Below, in pieces: positions 1,751 to 8,910 of a stretch of 8,910 nucleotides of DNA. Within the stretch, counting starts at the first letter, position 1, and every line of letters starts with the position of its first letter. The DNA comes from Escherichia coli (GTDB lineage: Bacteria; Pseudomonadota; Gammaproteobacteria; Enterobacterales; Enterobacteriaceae). Under the pieces are notes generated by a model. It ran no database searches. It saw nothing but the letters and a program-made list of their open reading frames with translations, and was not told the origin of the DNA. Location of the stretch: the NCBI RefSeq assembly GCF_044324785.1, contig NZ_CP172131.1; one strand, given 5' to 3'. Both the position numbers and the translations under genes were made by a program.

Positions 1751-1772
1751 CAACACTTTAGCCTGTCTTTGG

Positions 1773-3326
1773 TTACCATCCCAGCGACGGGCCATCCAGT
1801 GTCCGTTCCTGTATTTCCAGATGGCGCTCACGCTCTAGGAATAGCTCATGTTCACGTTCCTGTATCAGTAGTTCGTCCCTTATCTCCTGCTCTCGCTGTA
1901 TAACTGGCTCAAGTGTTCTGTCTGCTCGCTCAAGTGCTGCACCTGCTGACTCAACTGCATGACCCGCTCGTTCAGCATCGCGTTGTCCCGTTGCGTAAGC
2001 GAAAACATCTTCTGCAATTCCACGAAGGCGCTCTCCCATTCGTTCAGCCGCTGCATATAGTCCTGTTGCAGCTGCTCTAAGGCGTTCAGCAAATGTGTTT
2101 CCAGCTCTGTCACTCTGTGTCACTCCTTCAGATGTACCCACTCTTTCCCCTGAAAGGGAATCACCTCTGCTGATTTCCCGTACGGAAGGACCAGAAATTT
2201 CCTGTTCCCGTCCTGCACGAACTCCACGCCCCATGTCTTCGCGTTCAGTTTCTGCAATGTCTCTTCCTGCTTCCTGATATCTTCCAGGTTCGCCTGTATC
2301 CTCCCGCCAAGATACCAGAGCGTCCCGCCACTCGCGGTAAACAGGAGAAAGACTATCCCCAGTAACATCATGCCCGTATTCCCTGCCAGCTTTAACACGT
2401 CCTTCCTGTGCTGCCTCATCGCCTCTTTCACCCCTTCCCGGTGTTTCTCCAGCGATTCCTCTGTCGAGGCTGTGAACAGGGCTATAGCGTCTCTGATTTT
2501 CGTCTCGTTTGATGTCACAGCCTCGCTTACAGATTCGCCGAGCCTCCTGAACTCGTTGTTCAGCACTTTCTCTGTAGATTCGGCTCTCTCTTTCAGCTTT
2601 TTCTCGAACTCCGCGCCCGTCTGTAAAAGATTGCTCATAAAACGCTCCTTTCAGCCTGATATTCTTCCCGCCGTTCGGGTCTGCAATGCTGATGCTGCTT
2701 CGCGTCACCCTGACCACTTCAAGCCCCGCCTCTGTGAGCGCCTGAATCACATCCTGACGGCCTTTTATCTCCCCTACATGATAAAGAGCGTCTATCCCGC
2801 GTGTGACGCTCTCAGCAAGCGCCTGTTTCGTTTCCGGCAGGTTATCAGAGAGAGTCAGTATCCGGCGGTTCTCCGGGGCGTTGGGGTCATGCAGCCCGTA
2901 ATGGTGATTCACCAGCGTCTGCCAGGCATCAATTCTCGGCCTGTCTGCCCGGTCGTAGTACGGCTGGAGACGTTTTCCGGTCTGTAGCTCCATGTTCGGA
3001 ATGACAAAATTCAGCTCAAGCCGTCCCTTGTCCTGGTGCTCCACCCACAGGATGCTGTACTGATTCTTTTCGAGACCTGGCATCAGTACGCGCTCAAAGC
3101 TCGCCATCACTTTTTCACGTCCTCCCGGCGGCAGCTCCTTCTCCGCGAACGACAGAACGCCTGACGTGTATTTCTTCGCAAATGGCGTGGCATCGATGAG
3201 TTCCCGGACTTCTTCCGGATTACCCTGAAGCACCGTTGCGCCTTCGCGGTTACGCTCCCTCCCCAGCAGGTAATCAACCGGACCACTGCCACCACCTTTT
3301 CCCCTGGCATGAAATTTAACTATCAT
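1773..3326 (-). CDS. mbeA: MbeA mobilisation relaxase (MOBP/HEN family), 517 aa
   Basis: ORF 1773..3374 trimmed to the internal Met giving MIVKFHARGKGGGSGPVDYLLG (ATG at 3326..3324). Carries the catalytic Tyr context PVDYLL and a HEN-type motif (WVEHQDKGRLELNFVIPN). The 517-aa length matches my recollection of ColE1 MbeA, and the start overlaps the mbeC stop as in ColE1. Confidence 0.9.
   Translation of the reverse strand: MIVKFHARGKGGGSGPVDYLLGRERNREGATVLQGNPEEVRELIDATPFAKKYTSGVLSFAEKELPPGGREKVMASFERVLMPGLEKNQYSILWVEHQDKGRLELNFVIPNMELQTGKRLQPYYDRADRPRIDAWQTLVNHHYGLHDPNAPENRRILTLSDNLPETKQALAESVTRGIDALYHVGEIKGRQDVIQALTEAGLEVVRVTRSSISIADPNGGKNIRLKGAFYEQSFTDGRGVREKAERESRIYRESAEQRVQEARRICKRGCDIKRDENQRRYSPVHSLDRGIAGETPGRGERGDEAAQEGRVKAGREYGHDVTGDSLSPVYREWRDALVSWREDTGEPGRYQEAGRDIAETEREDMGRGVRAGREQEISGPSVREISRGDSLSGERVGTSEGVTQSDRAGNTFAERLRAAATGLYAAAERMGERLRGIAEDVFAYATGQRDAERAGHAVESAGAALERADRTLEPVIQREQEIRDELLIQEREHELFLERERHLEIQERTLDGPSLGW
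1880..2113 (-). CDS. mbeD: MbeD-like small mobilisation protein nested out of frame within mbeA
   Basis: 77-aa ORF lying wholly inside mbeA in another frame, the arrangement described for ColE1 mbeD. Start is GTG (2113..2111) with AAGGAG 9 nt upstream; coiled-coil-like sequence. The start-codon choice is uncertain. Confidence 0.6.
   Translation of the reverse strand: MTELETHLLNALEQLQQDYMQRLNEWESAFVELQKMFSLTQRDNAMLNERVMQLSQQVQHLSEQTEHLSQLYSESRR
2120..2638 (-). CDS. mbeB: MbeB mobilisation protein nested out of frame within mbeA, 172 aa
   Basis: ORF inside mbeA in an alternative frame with a perfect SD (gaaAGGAGcgtttt then ATG at 2638..2636); a hydrophobic segment (MMLLGIVFLLFTASGG) suggests membrane anchoring; size matches ColE1 MbeB as recalled. 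Confidence 0.8.
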   Translation of the reverse strand: MSNLLQTGAEFEKKLKERAESTEKVLNNEFRRLGESVSEAVTSNETKIRDAIALFTASTEESLEKHREGVKEAMRQHRKDVLKLAGNTGMMLLGIVFLLFTASGGTLWYLGGRIQANLEDIRKQEETLQKLNAKTWGVEFVQDGNRKFLVLPYGKSAEVIPFQGKEWVHLKE

Positions 3327-3672
3327 CCCGCGCCCCCTGTTCCCTGACGGCCAGACGCAGCCGGCGCAGCTCATCCCCGATGGCCATCAGTGCGGCCACC
3401 ACCTGAACCCGATCACCGGAAGACCACTGCCCGCTGTTCACCTTCCTCGCGGTCTGATTCAGGTTATTCCCGATGGCGGCCAGCTGACGCAGTAACGGCG
3501 GTGCCAGTGTCGGCAGCTTCCCGGAACGGGCAACCGGCTCCCCCAGGCAGACCCGCCGCATCCATACCGCCAGTTGTTTACCCTCACAGCGTTCCAGTAA
3601 CCGGGCATGTTCATCATCAGTAACCCGTATCGTGAGCATCCTCTCGCGTTTCATCGGTATCATTACCCCCAT
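3316..3672 (-). CDS. mbeC: MbeC relaxase accessory protein (ribbon-helix-helix type)
   Basis: ORF with the N-terminal motif MKRERMLTIRVTDDEHARLLERC typical of MobC/MbeC accessory proteins; sits immediately upstream of mbeA and overlaps it by 11 nt. The true start is ambiguous among three in-frame ATGs (3672, 3663, 3654); the longest is given. Confidence 0.8.
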   Translation of the reverse strand: MGVMIPMKRERMLTIRVTDDEHARLLERCEGKQLAVWMRRVCLGEPVARSGKLPTLAPPLLRQLAAIGNNLNQTARKVNSGQWSSGDRVQVVAALMAIGDELRRLRLAVREQGARDDS

Positions 3673-3703
3673 GAACAGAAATCCCCCTTACACGGAGGCA
3701 TCA

Positions 3704-3895
3704 GTGACTAAACAGGAAAAAACCGCCCTTAACATGGCCCGCTTCATCAGAGGCCAGACATTAACGCTGCTGGAGAAACTCAACGAACTGGACGCGGATG
3801 AACAGGCAGATATCTGTGAATCGCTTCACGACCACGCCGATGAGCTTTACCGCAGCTGCCTCGCACGTTTCGGGGATGACGGTGAAAACCTCTGA
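3704..3895 (+). CDS. rop: Rop/Rom, RNA I-RNA II pairing modulator, 63 aa
   Basis: GTG start at 3704 preceded by GGAGG (3694-3698). The translation VTKQEKTALNMARFIRGQTLTLLEKLNELDADEQADICESLHDHADELYRSCLARFGDDGENL matches Rop as I recall it from pBR322 except for one residue (G for S at position 17). Confidence 0.95.
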   Translation: MTKQEKTALNMARFIRGQTLTLLEKLNELDADEQADICESLHDHADELYRSCLARFGDDGENL

Positions 3896-3979
3896 CACAT
3901 GCAGCTCCCGGAGACGGTCACAGCTTGTCTGTGAGCGGATGCCGGGAGCCGACAAGCCCGTCAGGGCGCGTCAGCAGGT

Positions 3980-4050
3980 TTTAGCGGGTGTCGGGGCGCA
4001 GCCCTGACCCAGTCACGTAGCGATAGCGGAGTGTATACTGGCTTAGTCAT
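3980..4050 (+). other. bom/oriT region with predicted MbeA nic site (CTGG|CTTA, nick between 4041 and 4042)
   Basis: Sequence ggggcgcagccctgacccagtcacgtagcgatagcggagtgtatactggctta lies between rop and the origin exactly where pBR322/ColE1 carry bom; tactggctta at 4036-4045 contains the nic motif I recall for ColE1. Boundaries are approximate. Confidence 0.65.
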
Positions 4051-4217
4051 GCGGCATCGGTGCGGATTGTATGAAAAGTGCACCATGTACGGTGTGAAAT
4101 GCCGCACAGATGCGTAAGGAGAACATGCAGATGCCGATGCTCTTCCGCTTCCTCGCTCACTGACTCGCTGCGCTCGGTCGTTCGGCTGTGGCGAGCGGTG
4201 TCTGCTCACTCAAAAGC

Positions 4218-4226
4218 GGTGATACT
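4218..4226 (+). promoter_or_regulatory. DnaA box (ttatccaca) in the ColE1-type origin region
   Basis: Exact 9-mer match to the DnaA box consensus at the position where pBR322 has its DnaA box downstream of the RNA-DNA switch. Confidence 0.6.
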
Positions 4227-4719
4227 GTTATCCACACAATCAGGGGATAACGCCGGAAAGAACATGTGAGCAAAAAACGAAGACCCCAGAAAAGGCCGCG
4301 CCGGAGGCGCTTTTTCCATAGGCTCCGCCCCCCTGACGAGCATCACAAAAATCGACGCTCAAGTCAGAGGTGGCGAAACCCGACAGGACTTAAAGATACC
4401 AGGCGTTTCCCCCCGGAAGCTCCCTCGTGCGCTCTCCTGTTCCGACCCTGCCGCTTACCGGATACCTCTCCGCCTTTCTCCCTTCGGGAAGCGTGGCGCT
4501 TTCTCATAGCTCACGCTGTTGGTATCTCAGTTCGGTGTAGGTCGTTCGCTCCAAGCTGGGCTGTGTGCACGAACCCCCCGTTCAGCCCGACCGCTGCGCC
4601 TTATCCGGTAACTATCGTCTTGAGTCCAACCCGGTAAGACACGACAAAGCGCCACTGGCAGCAGCCGTTGGTAACTTGGTTAGCAGAGCGATGATGGCGC
4701 AAATGGTGCAACAGAGTTC

Positions 4720-4749
4720 TTGAAGTAGTGGCCCGACTACGGCTACACT
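4720..4749 (+). promoter_or_regulatory. RNA I promoter (-35 ttgaag 4720-4725, 18-bp spacer, -10 tacact 4744-4749)
   Basis: Conserved with the pMB1 RNA I promoter context (gttcttgaagt...ggctacact) directly upstream of the RNA I 5' end acagtatttgg. Confidence 0.7.
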
Positions 4750-4755
4750 GGAAGG

Positions 4756-4863
4756 ACAGTATTTGGTATCTGCGCTCTGCTGAAGCCAGTTACCTCGGTT
4801 AAGCAGTTCCCCAACTGACTTAACCTTCGATCAAACCGCCTCCCCAGGCGGTTTTTTCGTTTA
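4756..4863 (+). ncRNA. RNAI: RNA I antisense copy-number control RNA (about 108 nt)
   Basis: 5' region acagtatttggtatctgcgctctgctgaagccagttacct is identical to ColE1/pMB1 RNA I as recalled. Three stem-loops are retained, including ggttaag...cttaacc and the terminal hairpin aaaccgcctccccaggcggtttttt acting as terminator. Confidence 0.8.
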
Positions 4864-4871
4864 CAGGCAGC

Positions 4872-4900
4872 AGATTACGCGCAGAAAAAAAGGATCTCAA
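4872..4900 (-). promoter_or_regulatory. RNA II promoter (-35 TTGAGA as complement of 4895-4900; -10 TAATCT as complement of 4872-4877)
   Basis: The reverse complement reads ttgagatcctttttttctgcgcgtaatctg, matching the pMB1 RNA II promoter as I recall it. Confidence 0.7.
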
Positions 4901-4909
4901 GAAGATCCT
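4884..4909 (-). terminator. Intrinsic terminator downstream of kil, overlapping the RNA II promoter
   Basis: Stem aggatct/agatcct (4891-4897/4903-4909), loop caaga, with the A-run at 4884-4890 on + giving a T-run on the - strand just after the kil stop at 4920. Confidence 0.55.
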
Positions 4910-4919
4910 TTGATCTTTT

Positions 4920-5057
4920 CTACTGAACAGAGATCCCCGTCAGTTTAGAAGAAGATGATGGAGCCACAGTCCCTCCCTGAACATCACGTATATAGTTAGC
5001 CTGACATCCAACAAGGAGGTTTATAGCTAATATTCCCACAAAAAATCTTTTCCTCAT
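4920..5057 (-). CDS. kil: Colicin E1 lysis/release lipoprotein (Kil), 45 aa
   Basis: My own translation of the - strand (below the 60-aa ORF-track cut-off): [45 protein letters not shown], with lipobox LVGC and SD aagga 8 nt upstream of the ATG at 5057..5055. This is a typical colicin lysis protein placed downstream of cea and imm. Confidence 0.85.
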
Positions 5058-5104
5058 AACTCGATCCTTATAAAATGAAAAGAATATATAACGAGGTTTA
5101 ATTT

Positions 5105-5446
5105 ATGAGTTTAAGATACTACATAAAAAACATTTTGTTTGGCCTATATTGCACACTTATATATATATACCTTATAACAAAAAACAACGAAGGGTATTAT
5201 TTCCTAGCGTCAGATAAGATGCTATACGCAATCGTGATAAGCACTATTCTATGCCCATATTCAAAATATGCTATTGAACACATATTTTTTAAGTTCATAA
5301 AGAAAGATTTTTTCAGAAAAAGAAAAAATCTAAATAATGCCCCCGTGGCAAAATTAAACCTATTTATGCTATACAATCTACTTTGTTTGGTCCTAGCAAT
5401 CCCATTTGGATTGCTAGGACTGTTTATATCAATAAAGAATAATTAA
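5105..5446 (+). CDS. imm: Colicin E1 immunity protein (Imm), 113 aa integral membrane protein
   Basis: Translation [44 protein letters not shown]... matches the colicin E1 immunity protein as recalled; SD gagg 8 nt upstream; convergent with cea, with the two stop codons overlapping by 4 bp. Confidence 0.95.
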
Positions 5447-7008
5447 ATACCCAACACATCATTTATAGTATTAAGTTTATTCTTGTCAATAAAGGCACAT
5501 AGAATGCCTGTAACAATAGCAATCCCCCAGATACCTAATGTAGTTCCAGCAAGCACACTAAAAAGTAAAACAACAATATAACTAACTCCAGCATCTACAG
5601 TTTTCTTCTCTAATGTAAGAAATAGTGGCTTCCAGTCACCTGTATCCTTAATTTTTAGGATATCAGATACCACATCATATCCAAAAGAAACATGTCCCGT
5701 AATCTTCAAGTACTTAGCAAACTGATCTAAATGCTTAGCCCAGTCTTCATACTTAACCGATTCCAGTGCATTGAAAATCGCATCACGGTCTGCTTTGCTG
5801 AATTTCTTATTTAAAACATCCTTGTATTTTTCAAAAGCAGCTAGAGCTTCATTCACATTGCTGATTTTCTTACCTTTAGACTTATCAGCAAGTTCCTGTG
5901 CCATTTTTGAATATTTTTCACCATATTTTTCAGATAGCGTTTGATAAAAGCTAACTGTTGCATCCACAGCATCCTTAATCTGCGAGTTCAGGAGATTAGT
6001 CTGCGCTGTTTTCAAATTTTCTTCAGATTCATGAACACGTAAAACAGCTGTATTACGATTATTATTAGCCTGAGACATAGCCCCCTGAATTCCATTTATC
6101 TCAGCATTAAGTTGGTTAATACGCGTTTCTGATGCTGTTACCTGTTTTTGTTTTTCCTCCATAATCTTACCGGCTCCCGTCCGTCGACTGGTGGCATAGA
6201 AAAAAGGACGACTCTGAAGCGGATCATTAGCTCTTGGTGACAATTTTTTGACCAGTTCATCAAGTTCCTTATATTTAGCAGATGCCTGAGCCAGCTCATT
6301 TCGTTTTCCGGACAGCGTATTCATTTCTGCATCACGGGCATGAATACTGGAGCTTAAACGGGTATTGAGAGTCTTAATCTCTTCATCCACTTTCGCCAGC
6401 TCAGATTGTGCAGCAGCAAGATTTTTTTGTGCCACCTCCACTGCCCGGGCCTCTTCATTCAATGCTGCCAGCCGTTTCTCTTCAGCTTCAGCCAGTTTCA
6501 ACTGGCGTTCTGTTTCAGCCTGCTCCTTCTCTATCTCTTTACGTCGTTGTTCTGCCTCCTGAAAAGCCTTTTCCGCAGCTTCCGCTTCTTTACGGGCTTT
6601 TTCTTCTGCTTTTGCAAGGCGCAACCGCTCTGCTTCTGCCTGCATCGCTGCATTATTGGCATGAGCCAGGTCAATAACCTCCGGATGAGTGGAATTATGA
6701 CGAAGCGCCTCATTCACAATATCCTTCAGATGTTGAGTCAGCGCATCCCGGTTTGCTTTTGCTTTAGCCTGTGCTTCTGCGGCAGCTTTTGCCCGGGCAG
6801 CCTGTTCTGCCTGCGTTTTCTTCAATTGAGCAGTAGACCATTTAGCTGTGGCATGAATGGCTGCAGAACTTTCACTTTTGCTACCTCCAGTTCCACCACC
6901 GCCGCCAGAGCCACTCCCGTCTGGATTACCATTCAAAAGAGTAATGATTACCTGCCCCTTATCATCATAAGGAACACCATCTTTATAGTACGCTACAGCT
7001 GTTTCCAT
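5443..7008 (-). CDS. cea: Colicin E1 (pore-forming colicin), 521 aa
   Basis: N-terminus [39 protein letters not shown] (Gly-rich translocation domain), a long Ala/Glu/Lys-rich coiled-coil central region, and a C-terminal channel domain with the hydrophobic hairpin [33 protein letters not shown]; SD gagg 8 nt upstream. Confidence 0.95.
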
Positions 7009-7055
7009 TATAAAATCCTCTTTGACATTAAAAACAAATAGTTAAAAGCAATATA

Positions 7056-7086
7056 CTGTATATATAACCACTGGTTTTATATACAG
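7056..7086. promoter_or_regulatory. Two overlapping LexA (SOS) boxes between the cea promoter and start codon
   Basis: On the - strand the sequence reads CTGTATATAAAACCAG followed by TGGTTATATATACAG: the first is a perfect CTG-N10-CAG box and the second overlaps it by one base, the standard colicin dual-box layout. Confidence 0.85.
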
Positions 7087-7090
7087 CTTA

Positions 7091-7119
7091 AAATTACGCC
7101 GCTGCATTTTCCCTGTCAA
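7091..7119 (-). promoter_or_regulatory. cea (colicin) promoter: -35 TTGACA (complement of 7114-7119), 17-bp spacer, -10 TAATTT (complement of 7091-7096)
   Basis: Consensus -35 with a 17-bp spacer, immediately upstream of the LexA boxes and about 85 bp upstream of the cea ATG. Confidence 0.75.
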
Positions 7120-7138
7120 CCCTGTGGATTTTCATTTT

Positions 7139-7154
7139 TGTGAAAACGATCAAA
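7139..7154. promoter_or_regulatory. Putative cAMP-CRP site (tgtga-aaacga-tcaaa) in class I position upstream of the cea promoter
   Basis: 9 of 10 match to TGTGA-N6-TCACA; centred about 62 bp upstream of the inferred transcription start; consistent with the known catabolite sensitivity of colicin E1 synthesis. Confidence 0.5.
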
Positions 7155-7267
7155 AAAACAGCCACCCACACCACGTGCTATTCCCACCCGATGCCACAAA
7201 AACCAGCACAAACATTACCGTTCTCCGGCCCCAGTATGTTTTACTGAAACCATGATATGAGACATTA

Positions 7268-7705
7268 ATGGGACACTGTCACTTCATGGCATGGCACACA
7301 CTCCAGAACGCACTGAAAATGACAGGCAGATCGCGTTCACAGTTTTACCGTGATATGCGCGCAGGCCTTGTCAGTTATCGTACAGGCCAGGACGGACGGC
7401 GGGAGTTTGAAACCAGTGAACTGATCCGGGCATACGGCGAATTAAAGCAGGATGAGACACCAGAAAGGCACAGTGCGGGACAGGCAGAAAATCCACATGA
7501 TCAGCAGACAGAACGCATTCTCCGGGAGCTGAATGAGCTGAGACAATGCCTGACACTGATGCTTGAGGACAAACAGGCACAGGCTACGGAACGCCGGCGC
7601 CAGGAAGCCGAACGGGAACAGCTACATAAAGAGATAGAGCAGCTCAGGCAGGCACTGGAGCAGGAAAAAAAACGGGGATTCTGGGCCAGACTGTTCAGCC
7701 GGTGA
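7268..7705 (+). CDS. Hypothetical protein: N-terminal helix-turn-helix-like segment plus charged coiled-coil C-terminus (145 aa from the first ATG)
   Basis: ORF with an AlpA/MerR-like HTH-looking segment (MTGRSRSQFYRDMRAGLVSY) and an E/R/Q-rich heptad-like C-terminal half. None of the three candidate starts (7268, 7286, 7319) has a good SD, so start and expression are uncertain. Confidence 0.5.
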   Translation: MGHCHFMAWHTLQNALKMTGRSRSQFYRDMRAGLVSYRTGQDGRREFETSELIRAYGELKQDETPERHSAGQAENPHDQQTERILRELNELRQCLTLMLEDKQAQATERRRQEAEREQLHKEIEQLRQALEQEKKRGFWARLFSR

Positions 7706-7788
7706 GCACCGACTGCAAGTGATGATAAGATAGTCAGCGGTTAAATATAAGTCACTGAGTACAAAGATTTAAAGGTAAGGAGACACTC

Positions 7789-8208
7789 ATGAGACGTTCC
7801 GGCGGCACACTGTATCTTATCGCCCTGCTGACAGCGGCAACGGTCCTGACAGCCTGCACGCCAAAGGGCAGTGTGGAACAACATACCCGGCATTACGTTT
7901 ATGCATCAGACGATGGTTTTGATCCTAACTTTTCCACCCAGAAGGCCGACACAACACGAATGATGGTGCCTTTTTTCCGGCAGTTCTGGGATATGGGAGC
8001 AAAGGATAAAGCGACAGGAAAATCACGGAGTGATGTGCAGCAACGCATTCAGCAGTTTCACAGCCAGGAATTTTTAAACTCACTCCGGGGCACAACTCAA
8101 TTTGCGGGTACTGATTACCGCAGCAAAGACCTTACCCCGAAAAAATCCAGGCTGCTGGCTGAGACGATTTCTGCGGTTTATCTCGATGGCTACGAGGGAA
8201 GACAGTAA
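7789..8208 (+). CDS. Predicted lipoprotein, 139 aa, function unknown (candidate entry-exclusion-type protein)
   Basis: Strong SD (taaggag, 6-nt spacing) and a signal peptide with lipobox (MRRSGGTLYLIALLTAATVLTAC, Thr at +2). The stop lies 5 bp before the cer core. Confidence 0.7.
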   Translation: MRRSGGTLYLIALLTAATVLTACTPKGSVEQHTRHYVYASDDGFDPNFSTQKADTTRMMVPFFRQFWDMGAKDKATGKSRSDVQQRIQQFHSQEFLNSLRGTTQFAGTDYRSKDLTPKKSRLLAETISAVYLDGYEGRQ

Positions 8209-8212
8209 GTGG

Positions 8213-8242
8213 ATTTACCATAATCCCTTAATTGTACGCACC
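8213..8242 (-). other. cer-type XerC/XerD core recombination site for plasmid multimer resolution
   Basis: atttaccataatcccttaattgtacgcacc is the exact reverse complement of the ColE1 cer core as I recall it: GGTGCGTACAA (XerC arm), TTAAGGGA (8-bp spacer), TTATGGTAAAT (XerD arm). Confidence 0.85.
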
Positions 8243-8420
8243 GCTGAAATGCATTCAGCGCAATCACGGCAGCAGACAGGTAAAAATCGCAACAACCCCC
8301 CCGAAAAACTACCGCGATCGCGCCTGATAAATTTTAACCTTATGCATACCTATGCATCCAGGTGAATCACAAGCGAATTTCCTTACTGAGACGACTGAAA
8401 CGGTTTTTTTTCACAATTTT
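8243..8420 (-). other. Inferred cer accessory region (ArgR/PepA-binding sequences; expected location of the Pcer promoter for Rcd)
   Basis: In cer the roughly 180-bp accessory sequences flank the XerC arm, which here faces higher coordinates. A near-palindrome gctgaa-atgca-ttcagc (8243-8259) abuts the XerC arm. The extent is inferred, not seen; Rcd would run on the - strand through the core. Confidence 0.45.
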
Positions 8421-8679
8421 CAGCTGTTTTCGATTCCACAAAATAGAAGTTACAGGATAGGGATTAATCCCCTTCGCCGCCAAGGGGAGCAGGATGAGTC
8501 AGGGGAATGTCTATTCACCTGCGCTGTACAGGCTGCCAGGTAAAAGTATTCGCTGCGGCACGATACTCTTTTGCCCTCATAGCCTTTGCGCTTCTTACTT
8601 TTCGTTCTTCCAGAATCATTCTTAAGACATTTTCCCGCACTTTTCTCTAACTTCCCGTGGCAATTTATCTCTGCCGGAC

Positions 8680-8910
8680 TGAACCGCCCCGGAAATCCTG
8701 GAGACTAAACTTCCTGAGAAAGATGTAAACAGGATGACTAAAAATACTCGTTTTTCCCCCGAAGTCCGTCAACGGGCAGTTCGTATGGTTCTGGAAAGCC
8801 AGGGCGAATATGACTCACAATGGGCGGCAATTTGTTCCATTGCTCCAAAGATTGGCTGTACGCCAGAGACCCTGCGTGTCTGGGTTCGCCAGCATGAGCG
8901 GGATACCGGG
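8680..8910 (+). mobile_element. Left end of an IS3-family insertion sequence resembling IS629 (partial; continues past the window)
   Basis: Terminal sequence tgaaccgccccggaaatcctggagactaaacttcctgagaaag starting at 8680 with the 5'-TG typical of IS3-family ends, followed 54 bp later by the orfA start. Confidence 0.8.
8734..8910 (+). CDS. IS3-family transposase OrfA (HTH N-terminal part), truncated by the window end
   Basis: Translation [59 protein letters not shown] is open to the last base; it matches IS629-group OrfA N-termini as recalled. Confidence 0.8.

Follow-up and report, generated by a model that had tools for sequence, protein, structure and literature searches.

The colicin genes cea, imm and kil of the plasmid analysed here, together with the replication promoter next to them, very probably constitute a canonical ColE1 colicin module that adjoins a ColE1 replication control region. 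In this arrangement a hairpin after cea (T1) would act as a partial stop for colicin transcription, a hairpin after kil (T2) would insulate the promoter of the replication primer RNA II, and firing of the operon would interfere with expression of imm. The face-to-face overlapping genes and the hairpin on the replication promoter are the long-described ColE1 layout and as such already known: work on ColE1 in the 1980s described the order cea-imm-kil, both terminators and a primer promoter containing GATC sites, all of which the present plasmid retains without change. What needs correction is the emphasis, as the dyad at the RNA II -35 element is a replicon feature common to many ColE1-like plasmids that lack kil. 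Experiments that ask how colicin induction affects replication should therefore distinguish between the roles of promoter, Dam sites and terminator.

According to the proposed mechanism, LexA would repress the cea promoter until DNA damage leads to LexA cleavage and thereby frees it. Leftward transcription of cea would then meet the T1 hairpin, where part of the transcripts would be ended or processed, while the remaining ones would run antisense through all of imm and then through kil, to stop at the T2 hairpin and its U-run inside the primer promoter. With this shape T2 would serve as an insulator that shields RNA II initiation from upstream transcription. The immunity gene would have a weak promoter of its own that points towards the operon, and its expression would suffer interference from convergent transcription upon induction of the operon.

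Plasmid identity and organization of the colicin operon

The window, i.e. the whole 8,910-bp stretch of DNA that was analysed, is a complete circular ColE1-type plasmid, which by megablast is 100% identical to the E. coli plasmid pMTY9803_untypable2 (NZ_CP135675.1; coordinates of that record correspond to window + 112). About 12 near-identical 8.9-kb plasmids, chiefly from chicken and human E. coli, were retrieved by megablast, and PLSDB typing gives a mobilizable MOBP plasmid within a replicon cluster shared with ColE1. Positions 1770-8361 align by blastn to nearly all of ColE1 (NC_001371) with 89-94% identity. Hereby, RNA II and its primer promoter are homologous to NC_001371, rop is annotated downstream, and the Rfam match to RNA I overlaps the beginning of the primer RNA, which is the antisense arrangement of a ColE1-type replicon. 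The positions of all features are collected in Table 1.

Table 1. Positions in the window of the colicin genes, their promoters, the two hairpins and the replication control elements
Feature	Position	Strand	Basis or remark
cea, colicin E1 allele, 521 aa	5443-7008	-	ORF; stop = complement of 5443-5445
imm, colicin E1 immunity protein, 113 aa	5105-5446	+	ORF; stop TAA at 5444-5446
kil, colicin release lysis lipoprotein, 45 aa	4920-5057	-	ORF
imm/cea overlap, 4 bp TTAA, both TAA stops inside	5443-5446	both	sequence
cea promoter region	7056-7119	-	-35 TTGACA 7119..7114; -10 TAATTT 7096..7091
LexA box 1, CTGTATATAAAACCAG	7086..7071	-	pattern search, 1 mismatch to CTGT-N8-ACAG
LexA box 2, GTGGTTATATATACAG, overlapping box 1	7071..7056	-	read by analogy with ColE1
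Weak candidate imm promoter, TTTTCC-17 bp-TAAAAT, overlapping the kil start codon	5048-5076	+	8/12, inference only
T1-position hairpin, perfect 13-bp stem and 5-nt loop	5421..5389	-	terminator scan
T2 hairpin, AAAGGATCT-TCTTG-AGATCCTTT	4911..4889	-	terminator scan; arms 4911..4903 and 4897..4889, loop 4902..4898
GATC (Dam) sites	4893, 4904, 4912	both	two flank the -35 element; a fourth at 4932 in kil
RNA II promoter	4872-4900	-	-35 TTGAGA 4900..4895; 17-bp spacer; -10 TAATCT 4877..4872
RNA I, antisense copy-number regulator	4758-4860	+	Rfam RF00106, 87.4 bits vs gathering score 47, E 1e-15
RNA I own terminator stem	4833-4854		terminator scan

The pore-forming domain PF01024 occupies the C-terminal residues 343-517 of Cea (E 5.5e-34), Imm belongs to the E1 immunity family PF03526 (E 3e-35), and Kil matches the lysis protein family PF02402 (E 7e-32) and carries a lipobox LVGC at residues 15-18; a search of the three proteins against NCBIfam gave no match. 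As expected for the operon of a group A pore-forming colicin, imm lies between cea and kil on the opposite strand, the pore domain is C-terminal, the lysis lipoprotein gene comes last, and the predicted LexA (SOS) boxes overlap the colicin promoter. A first-pass annotation of this DNA had stated that imm (+) and cea (-) share 4 bp at their stops, that kil lies beyond imm on the cea strand and that the arrangement was inherited from ColE1. All three statements are borne out: the shared bases are the TTAA at 5443-5446, kil reads on the - strand from the far side of imm, and gene order, strands, 4-bp overlap, hairpins and promoter are the same in NC_001371.

Compared to the ColE1 proteins, Cea is 89.1%, Imm 93.8% (full length) and Kil 91% identical, while the DNA between the cea stop and the RNA I promoter is about 95% identical. 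The stem and loop of T1 are identical in both plasmids, the T2 hairpin, the -35 element, the T-run in the spacer and the -10 element agree base for base, and the SOS boxes are of the same type. ColE1 has GATT where the window has its third GATC at 4912, and the window differs further by a 2.3-kb insertion elsewhere, near cer. Judged from this alignment, the stretch from imm to the RNA II promoter is without a variant-specific feature, as there is no difference from ColE1 at the relevant bases.

RNA I/RNA II stem-loops 2-3 (window 4758-4864) differ between ColE1 and the window, whose allele matches that of the colicin Y plasmid pB771_9494 and resembles those of Pantoea and Erwinia replicons (L012, L013). 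Because of this difference from ColE1, the incompatibility specificity of the plasmid is likely to be different as well. A 52-aa ORF inside the RNA II/origin region (4565-4723, + strand) is annotated as 'hypothetical protein' in this plasmid, whereas the ColE1 record calls it 'replication initiation protein'; it is most likely an artefact of annotation.

In RefSeq only the last 75 codons of imm are annotated, with a start at 5219 that leaves out 5105-5218. The 113-aa ORF has a GAGG Shine-Dalgarno sequence 8 nt before its start at 5105 and gives a full-length alignment with ColE1 Imm, and the deposited start is probably wrong. With Imm as tblastn query the matches fell into just two groups of close alleles, one with at least 99% and the other with 90-95% identity, and no distant homologues were retrieved. 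The leader of kil (5058-5075, - strand) contains in its ribosome-binding region, AUAAGGAUCGAGUUAUG, an A(N)GGA motif and a GATC site; speculatively, this A(N)GGA is of the kind that CsrA binds on the ColE7 and ColE2 lysis genes.

Promoters of cea, kil and imm

The hexamers of the cea promoter and LexA box 2 are assigned by comparison of the sequence with ColE1. A CRP-like site TTTGA-N6-TCACA precedes the cea -35 element at 7139-7154 (- strand) and would fit the cAMP dependence reported for colicin E1. A consensus promoter scan at standard stringency leaves the known RNA II and cea promoters undetected, and a relaxed hexamer scan gives for imm only matches at chance level, not significant in AT-rich DNA. 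The promoter positions thus rest on homology. In the same relaxed scan no convincing kil-specific internal promoter appeared, the best matches reaching at most 8/12 in DNA of 29% GC. In line with this, kil expression is described as dependent on the cea promoter (Waleh & Johnson 1985, as cited in PMC6234761).

The immunity genes of pore-forming colicins are encoded opposite to the colicin gene and have a promoter of their own (PMC9517006). The ColA operon caa-cai-cal resembles the window in that a pore-forming colicin gene and a lysis gene enclose an immunity gene on the opposite strand, whereas its colicin and immunity families are different ones. It is only for ColA that an interference of the SOS promoter with the convergent immunity gene, relieved by LexA repression, is documented (Lloubes, Baty & Lazdunski 1986, cited in PMC5001618). 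By this precedent, induction of the operon should interfere with imm expression in the present plasmid too, to which the window itself contributes the convergent geometry.

A hairpin at the position of T1

The first of the two hairpins starts 21 nt past the cea stop and thus lies within the 3' end of imm (codons V96-L106), at the place where the ColE1 literature puts terminator T1. Its fold on the - strand is highly stable (-23.3 kcal/mol, z -5.1, matched by 0 of 200 shuffled sequences) and is similar on the + strand (-26.1 kcal/mol). On the - strand the stem is followed by AAACAAAGUAG / AAACAAAG without a U-run, so that the hairpin falls outside the definition of an intrinsic terminator as a stem-loop plus U-run. 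Its d-score there is -48, on a crude d'Aubenton-Carafa-type scale that was calculated with modern energy parameters, gives about -6 for the bona fide RNA I terminator and is used for ranking only. Termination at T1, if it occurs at all, would thus have to follow a non-intrinsic route. T1 of ColE1 was reportedly described as rho-dependent by Ebina and Nakazawa in 1983, with the site after cea; the primary accounts of T1 and T2 are said to be theirs together with those of Waleh and Johnson and of Chan et al., both from 1985.

Transcripts that end at T1 are antisense to the last ~55 nt of imm only, and it would be only the fraction that reads through T1 that crosses imm. Some read-through has to occur, given the dependence of kil on the cea promoter and the lack of a credible internal promoter in the sequence. 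The earlier suggestion that the cea-kil transcript is antisense across the whole of imm hence applies to this read-through fraction, but is too general as a blanket claim, given the 13-bp hairpin that intervenes.

The T1 hairpin could also serve the imm transcript, or mRNA stability, instead of attenuating cea-kil transcription, and would then be a bidirectional 3'-end element shared by both genes. That it folds equally well on both strands agrees with this possibility, as does the tail on the + strand, which is more U-rich and ranks higher (-15 vs -48 on the same ranking scale); furthermore, an 11-bp hairpin is likewise found where the genes of the non-homologous colicin Y/Cui pair meet. Against these points stands the position of the hairpin, which on the + strand ends 22 nt before the imm stop. 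Termination there would yield a stop-less imm mRNA, and a role as imm terminator is therefore unlikely. The rho-dependent site that is said to follow cea in ColE1 likewise counts against it. On balance we regard a function of T1 for imm or mRNA stability as unlikely, although it is the best-placed of the alternatives considered here, and retain the reading of T1 as a partial stop for cea-kil transcription.

A terminator-shaped hairpin on the RNA II promoter

T2 begins 9 nt past the kil stop. Its stem is followed by TTTT(CTG), the T-run extending to 4885, so that the whole element spans 4911..4885 on the - strand. The RNA fold has an energy of -18.2 kcal/mol (z -3.65, matched by 1 of 200 shuffled sequences), and with a stem of 9-10 pairs, 3-4 of them G-C, followed by a T7 run, T2 has the shape of an intrinsic terminator on this strand. 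Its rough d-score of +11.5, to be read as a rank and obtained with a short stem, is at least as good as the score of the RNA I terminator on this plasmid. In the predicted fold, pairing of the U-run with A's upstream of T2 is possible and may make termination weaker. No other terminator is present between kil and the RNA II promoter; since cea-kil transcripts must end before RNA II, this counts for a terminator role of T2. On the + strand, T2 was considered as a terminator for RNA I read-through and rejected (z -1.18, poor tail).

The RNA II promoter was located from its position relative to RNA I and from its base-for-base identity to ColE1 and pMB1; its -35 and -10 hexamers are assigned as in the published ColE1/pBR322 promoter, and the RNA II start (+1) is placed at ~4864 on the - strand via the Rfam position of RNA I. 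Only 19 nt separate the kil stop codon from the -35 element, one half of which falls in the T2 loop and the other half in the 3' arm, whereas the T-run of T2 forms the promoter spacer. The hairpin is thus indeed interleaved with the -35 element, as the first-pass annotation had noticed, with T2 (4911..4885) enclosing TTGAGA at 4900..4895. The extent given there, 4891-4909, covers the inner part of the stem, the stem proper being 4911..4889. Judged by its terminator-like form, T2 is more likely to insulate the RNA II promoter than to interfere with it.

The palindromic core of T2, GATCTTCTTGAGATC, is 15 nt long and reads GATC-TTCTTGA-GATC, so that two Dam sites bracket the -35 element. Four of the 18 GATC sites of the 8,910-bp plasmid are found within 43 bp in this region. 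These GATC sites of the ColE1 primer promoter were the subject of a study by Patnaik et al. 1990 (cited in PMC7736820).

The dyad core in other ColE1-like replicons

ColE1-like origins were collected from one genome per species with a pattern placed ~150 nt inside RNA II, whereby the promoter itself was not selected on; the following counts exclude pUC, pBR322 and p15A vector contaminants as well as ColE1 itself. An exact GATC-N7-GATC core around TTGAGA or TTGTGA is present at about 20 natural loci, from Pantoea, Erwinia, Dickeya, Yersinia, Mixta, Cedecea, Kluyvera, Enterobacter and other hosts, while about 7 natural loci have the core minus one GATC and about 18 have a different promoter. Matches to Kil in a tblastn search across the fetched origins are confined to ColE1-type loci. 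The RNA II promoters of pMB1/pBR322, p15A and other ColE1-like replicons likewise have TTGAGA as -35 element within the GATCTTCTTGAGATC dyad. Between the kil stop codon and the -10 element, pMB1 does not differ from the window (L006, L007, L024 and others). These replicons have no kil upstream, and in pBR322-type vectors Tn3 abuts the dyad.

In ColE1, pMB1 and the loci L008, L014 and L018, A/T tracts extend the core to a stem of 9-12 bp that is followed by 7-9 T's. Stem extension and T-run are missing from many natural ColE1-like replicons, where only the 5-6-bp core without a T-run remains (e.g. L005, L013, L019, L022, L029, L034, L042). At L008, L014 and L018 the long A/T-extended dyad lies behind unrelated co-directional open reading frames. 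This suggests that the long terminator form goes together with a co-directional gene upstream, but the association has exceptions: at L029 an ORF ends 6 nt upstream, yet only the short core is present.

In some pBR322/pUC-derived loci (L006, L007, L010, L046, L047, L055) the RNA II promoter hairpin, AAAGGATCTTCTTGAGATCCTTTTTTT, is preceded at a distance of about 90 bp by the terminator of Tn3 bla, AAAGGATCTAGGTGAAGATCCTTTTT, and the two are closely similar. Many non-enterobacterial 'genomes' in the species-representative set contain such pBR322/pUC vector origins and hence represent contamination.

The colicin Y plasmid pB771_9494 (L065, NZ_CP120560.1) provides a natural exchange of the colicin module. 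Its backbone, RNA I/II allele and T2/promoter region are as in the window, whereas its convergent colicin and immunity genes are unrelated to those of the window and do not overlap, being separated by a gap of 27 bp; an 11-bp hairpin with a U-rich tail is located at the cya/cui junction. The lysis gene of this plasmid (4634-4774, vs 4920-5057 in the window) is a chimera with an unrelated 5' half and a 3' half that is ColE1-like from GATGTTCAGGGAGGGAC onward. Therefore, a recombination junction of the colicin module is situated within this gene. From its 3' half through the hairpin to the RNA II promoter the sequence is nearly that of the window, so that the T2 dyad remains part of the replicon upon exchange of the colicin module.

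Since the dyad core is kept at RNA II promoters that lack kil and stays with the replicon in the colicin Y plasmid, it is mainly a promoter element of the replicon that carries two Dam sites, and in ColE1 it is lengthened by A/T tracts into what would be a terminator-like insulator. To call it the kil terminator, as the first-pass annotation did, describes its terminator-like form 3' of kil correctly, but remains incomplete in view of the kil-less promoters that keep the core.

From these comparisons one could go further and regard the element as promoter and methylation target only. The Dam GATCs around the -35 element would then tie the primer promoter to post-replication methylation, and the hairpin would be a by-product that contributes no useful termination of cea-kil transcripts. 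The retention of GATCTTCTTGAGATC in many replicons from which stem extension and T-run are absent, the local GATC enrichment and the work of Patnaik et al. 1990 (cited in PMC7736820) are all compatible with such a role. The A/T extension in ColE1, pMB1, L008, L014 and L018, however, goes beyond what Dam sites need and fits the terminator consensus, and a by-product would leave cea-kil transcripts, which must end before RNA II, with no terminator at all in this interval. We therefore consider a purely methylation-linked element rather improbable, somewhat more so than a role of T1 for imm, and keep to the view of T2 as a replicon element with an added insulator function.

The overlap of T2 and the RNA II promoter might conversely be a regulatory device in itself, by which SOS-induced polymerases alter primer synthesis and copy number, either through occlusion of the -35/-10 region or through a 5'-extended RNA II that escapes RNA I. 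The geometry could hardly be tighter, with the kil stop so close to the -35 element and the U-run in the spacer, and some read-through is plausible for a terminator that is only moderately strong with its 3-4 G-C pairs. Vector work of Stueber and Bujard from 1982 is said to have found that read-through into ColE1 origins disturbs replication, which would support a coupling of this kind. Nevertheless, the occurrence of the same dyad core at RNA II promoters without an inducible operon upstream implies that the overlap needs no coupling function, and the hairpin/U-run form matches what is expected of an insulator. In the literature searched, work on SOS- or colicin-linked copy number or on ColE1 RNA-seq was limited to ColE2/CsrA studies and vector papers, and no report tied a change in copy number to cea-kil read-through. 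Coupling of operon induction to primer synthesis is thus decidedly improbable, and its strongest form, in which the T2/-35 overlap acts as an SOS-to-replication coupler that changes copy number and colicin gene dosage in cells committed to lysis, we consider more doubtful still. If true, a coupling of SOS-induced colicin transcription to copy number would be of interest to plasmid biologists and to modellers of colicin producer populations.

An AT-rich insertion near cer

The insertion relative to ColE1 noted above is a 2,318-bp AT-rich stretch (32-41% GC) at 8362-8910 and 1-1769, which replaces 52 bp of ColE1. It contains no ORF of at least 70 aa apart from overlapping junk at 1369-1831, carries no annotation and gives no Rfam match. 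About 1.5 kb of it recurs, likewise unannotated and at ~79-83% identity, in large conjugative plasmids (e.g. IncK2/Z) of chicken E. coli, and tblastx of this recurring part favours no reading frame. The stretch could represent a non-coding element or a long-dead gene.

At 8213-8242 (- strand) the window matches the XerC/XerD core of ColE1 cer exactly. The insertion starts ~120 bp from this core, with 8243-8361 in between, and, given the extent of cer, probably lies inside the accessory arm of this site. Dimer resolution or Rcd expression might thus be altered by the insertion.
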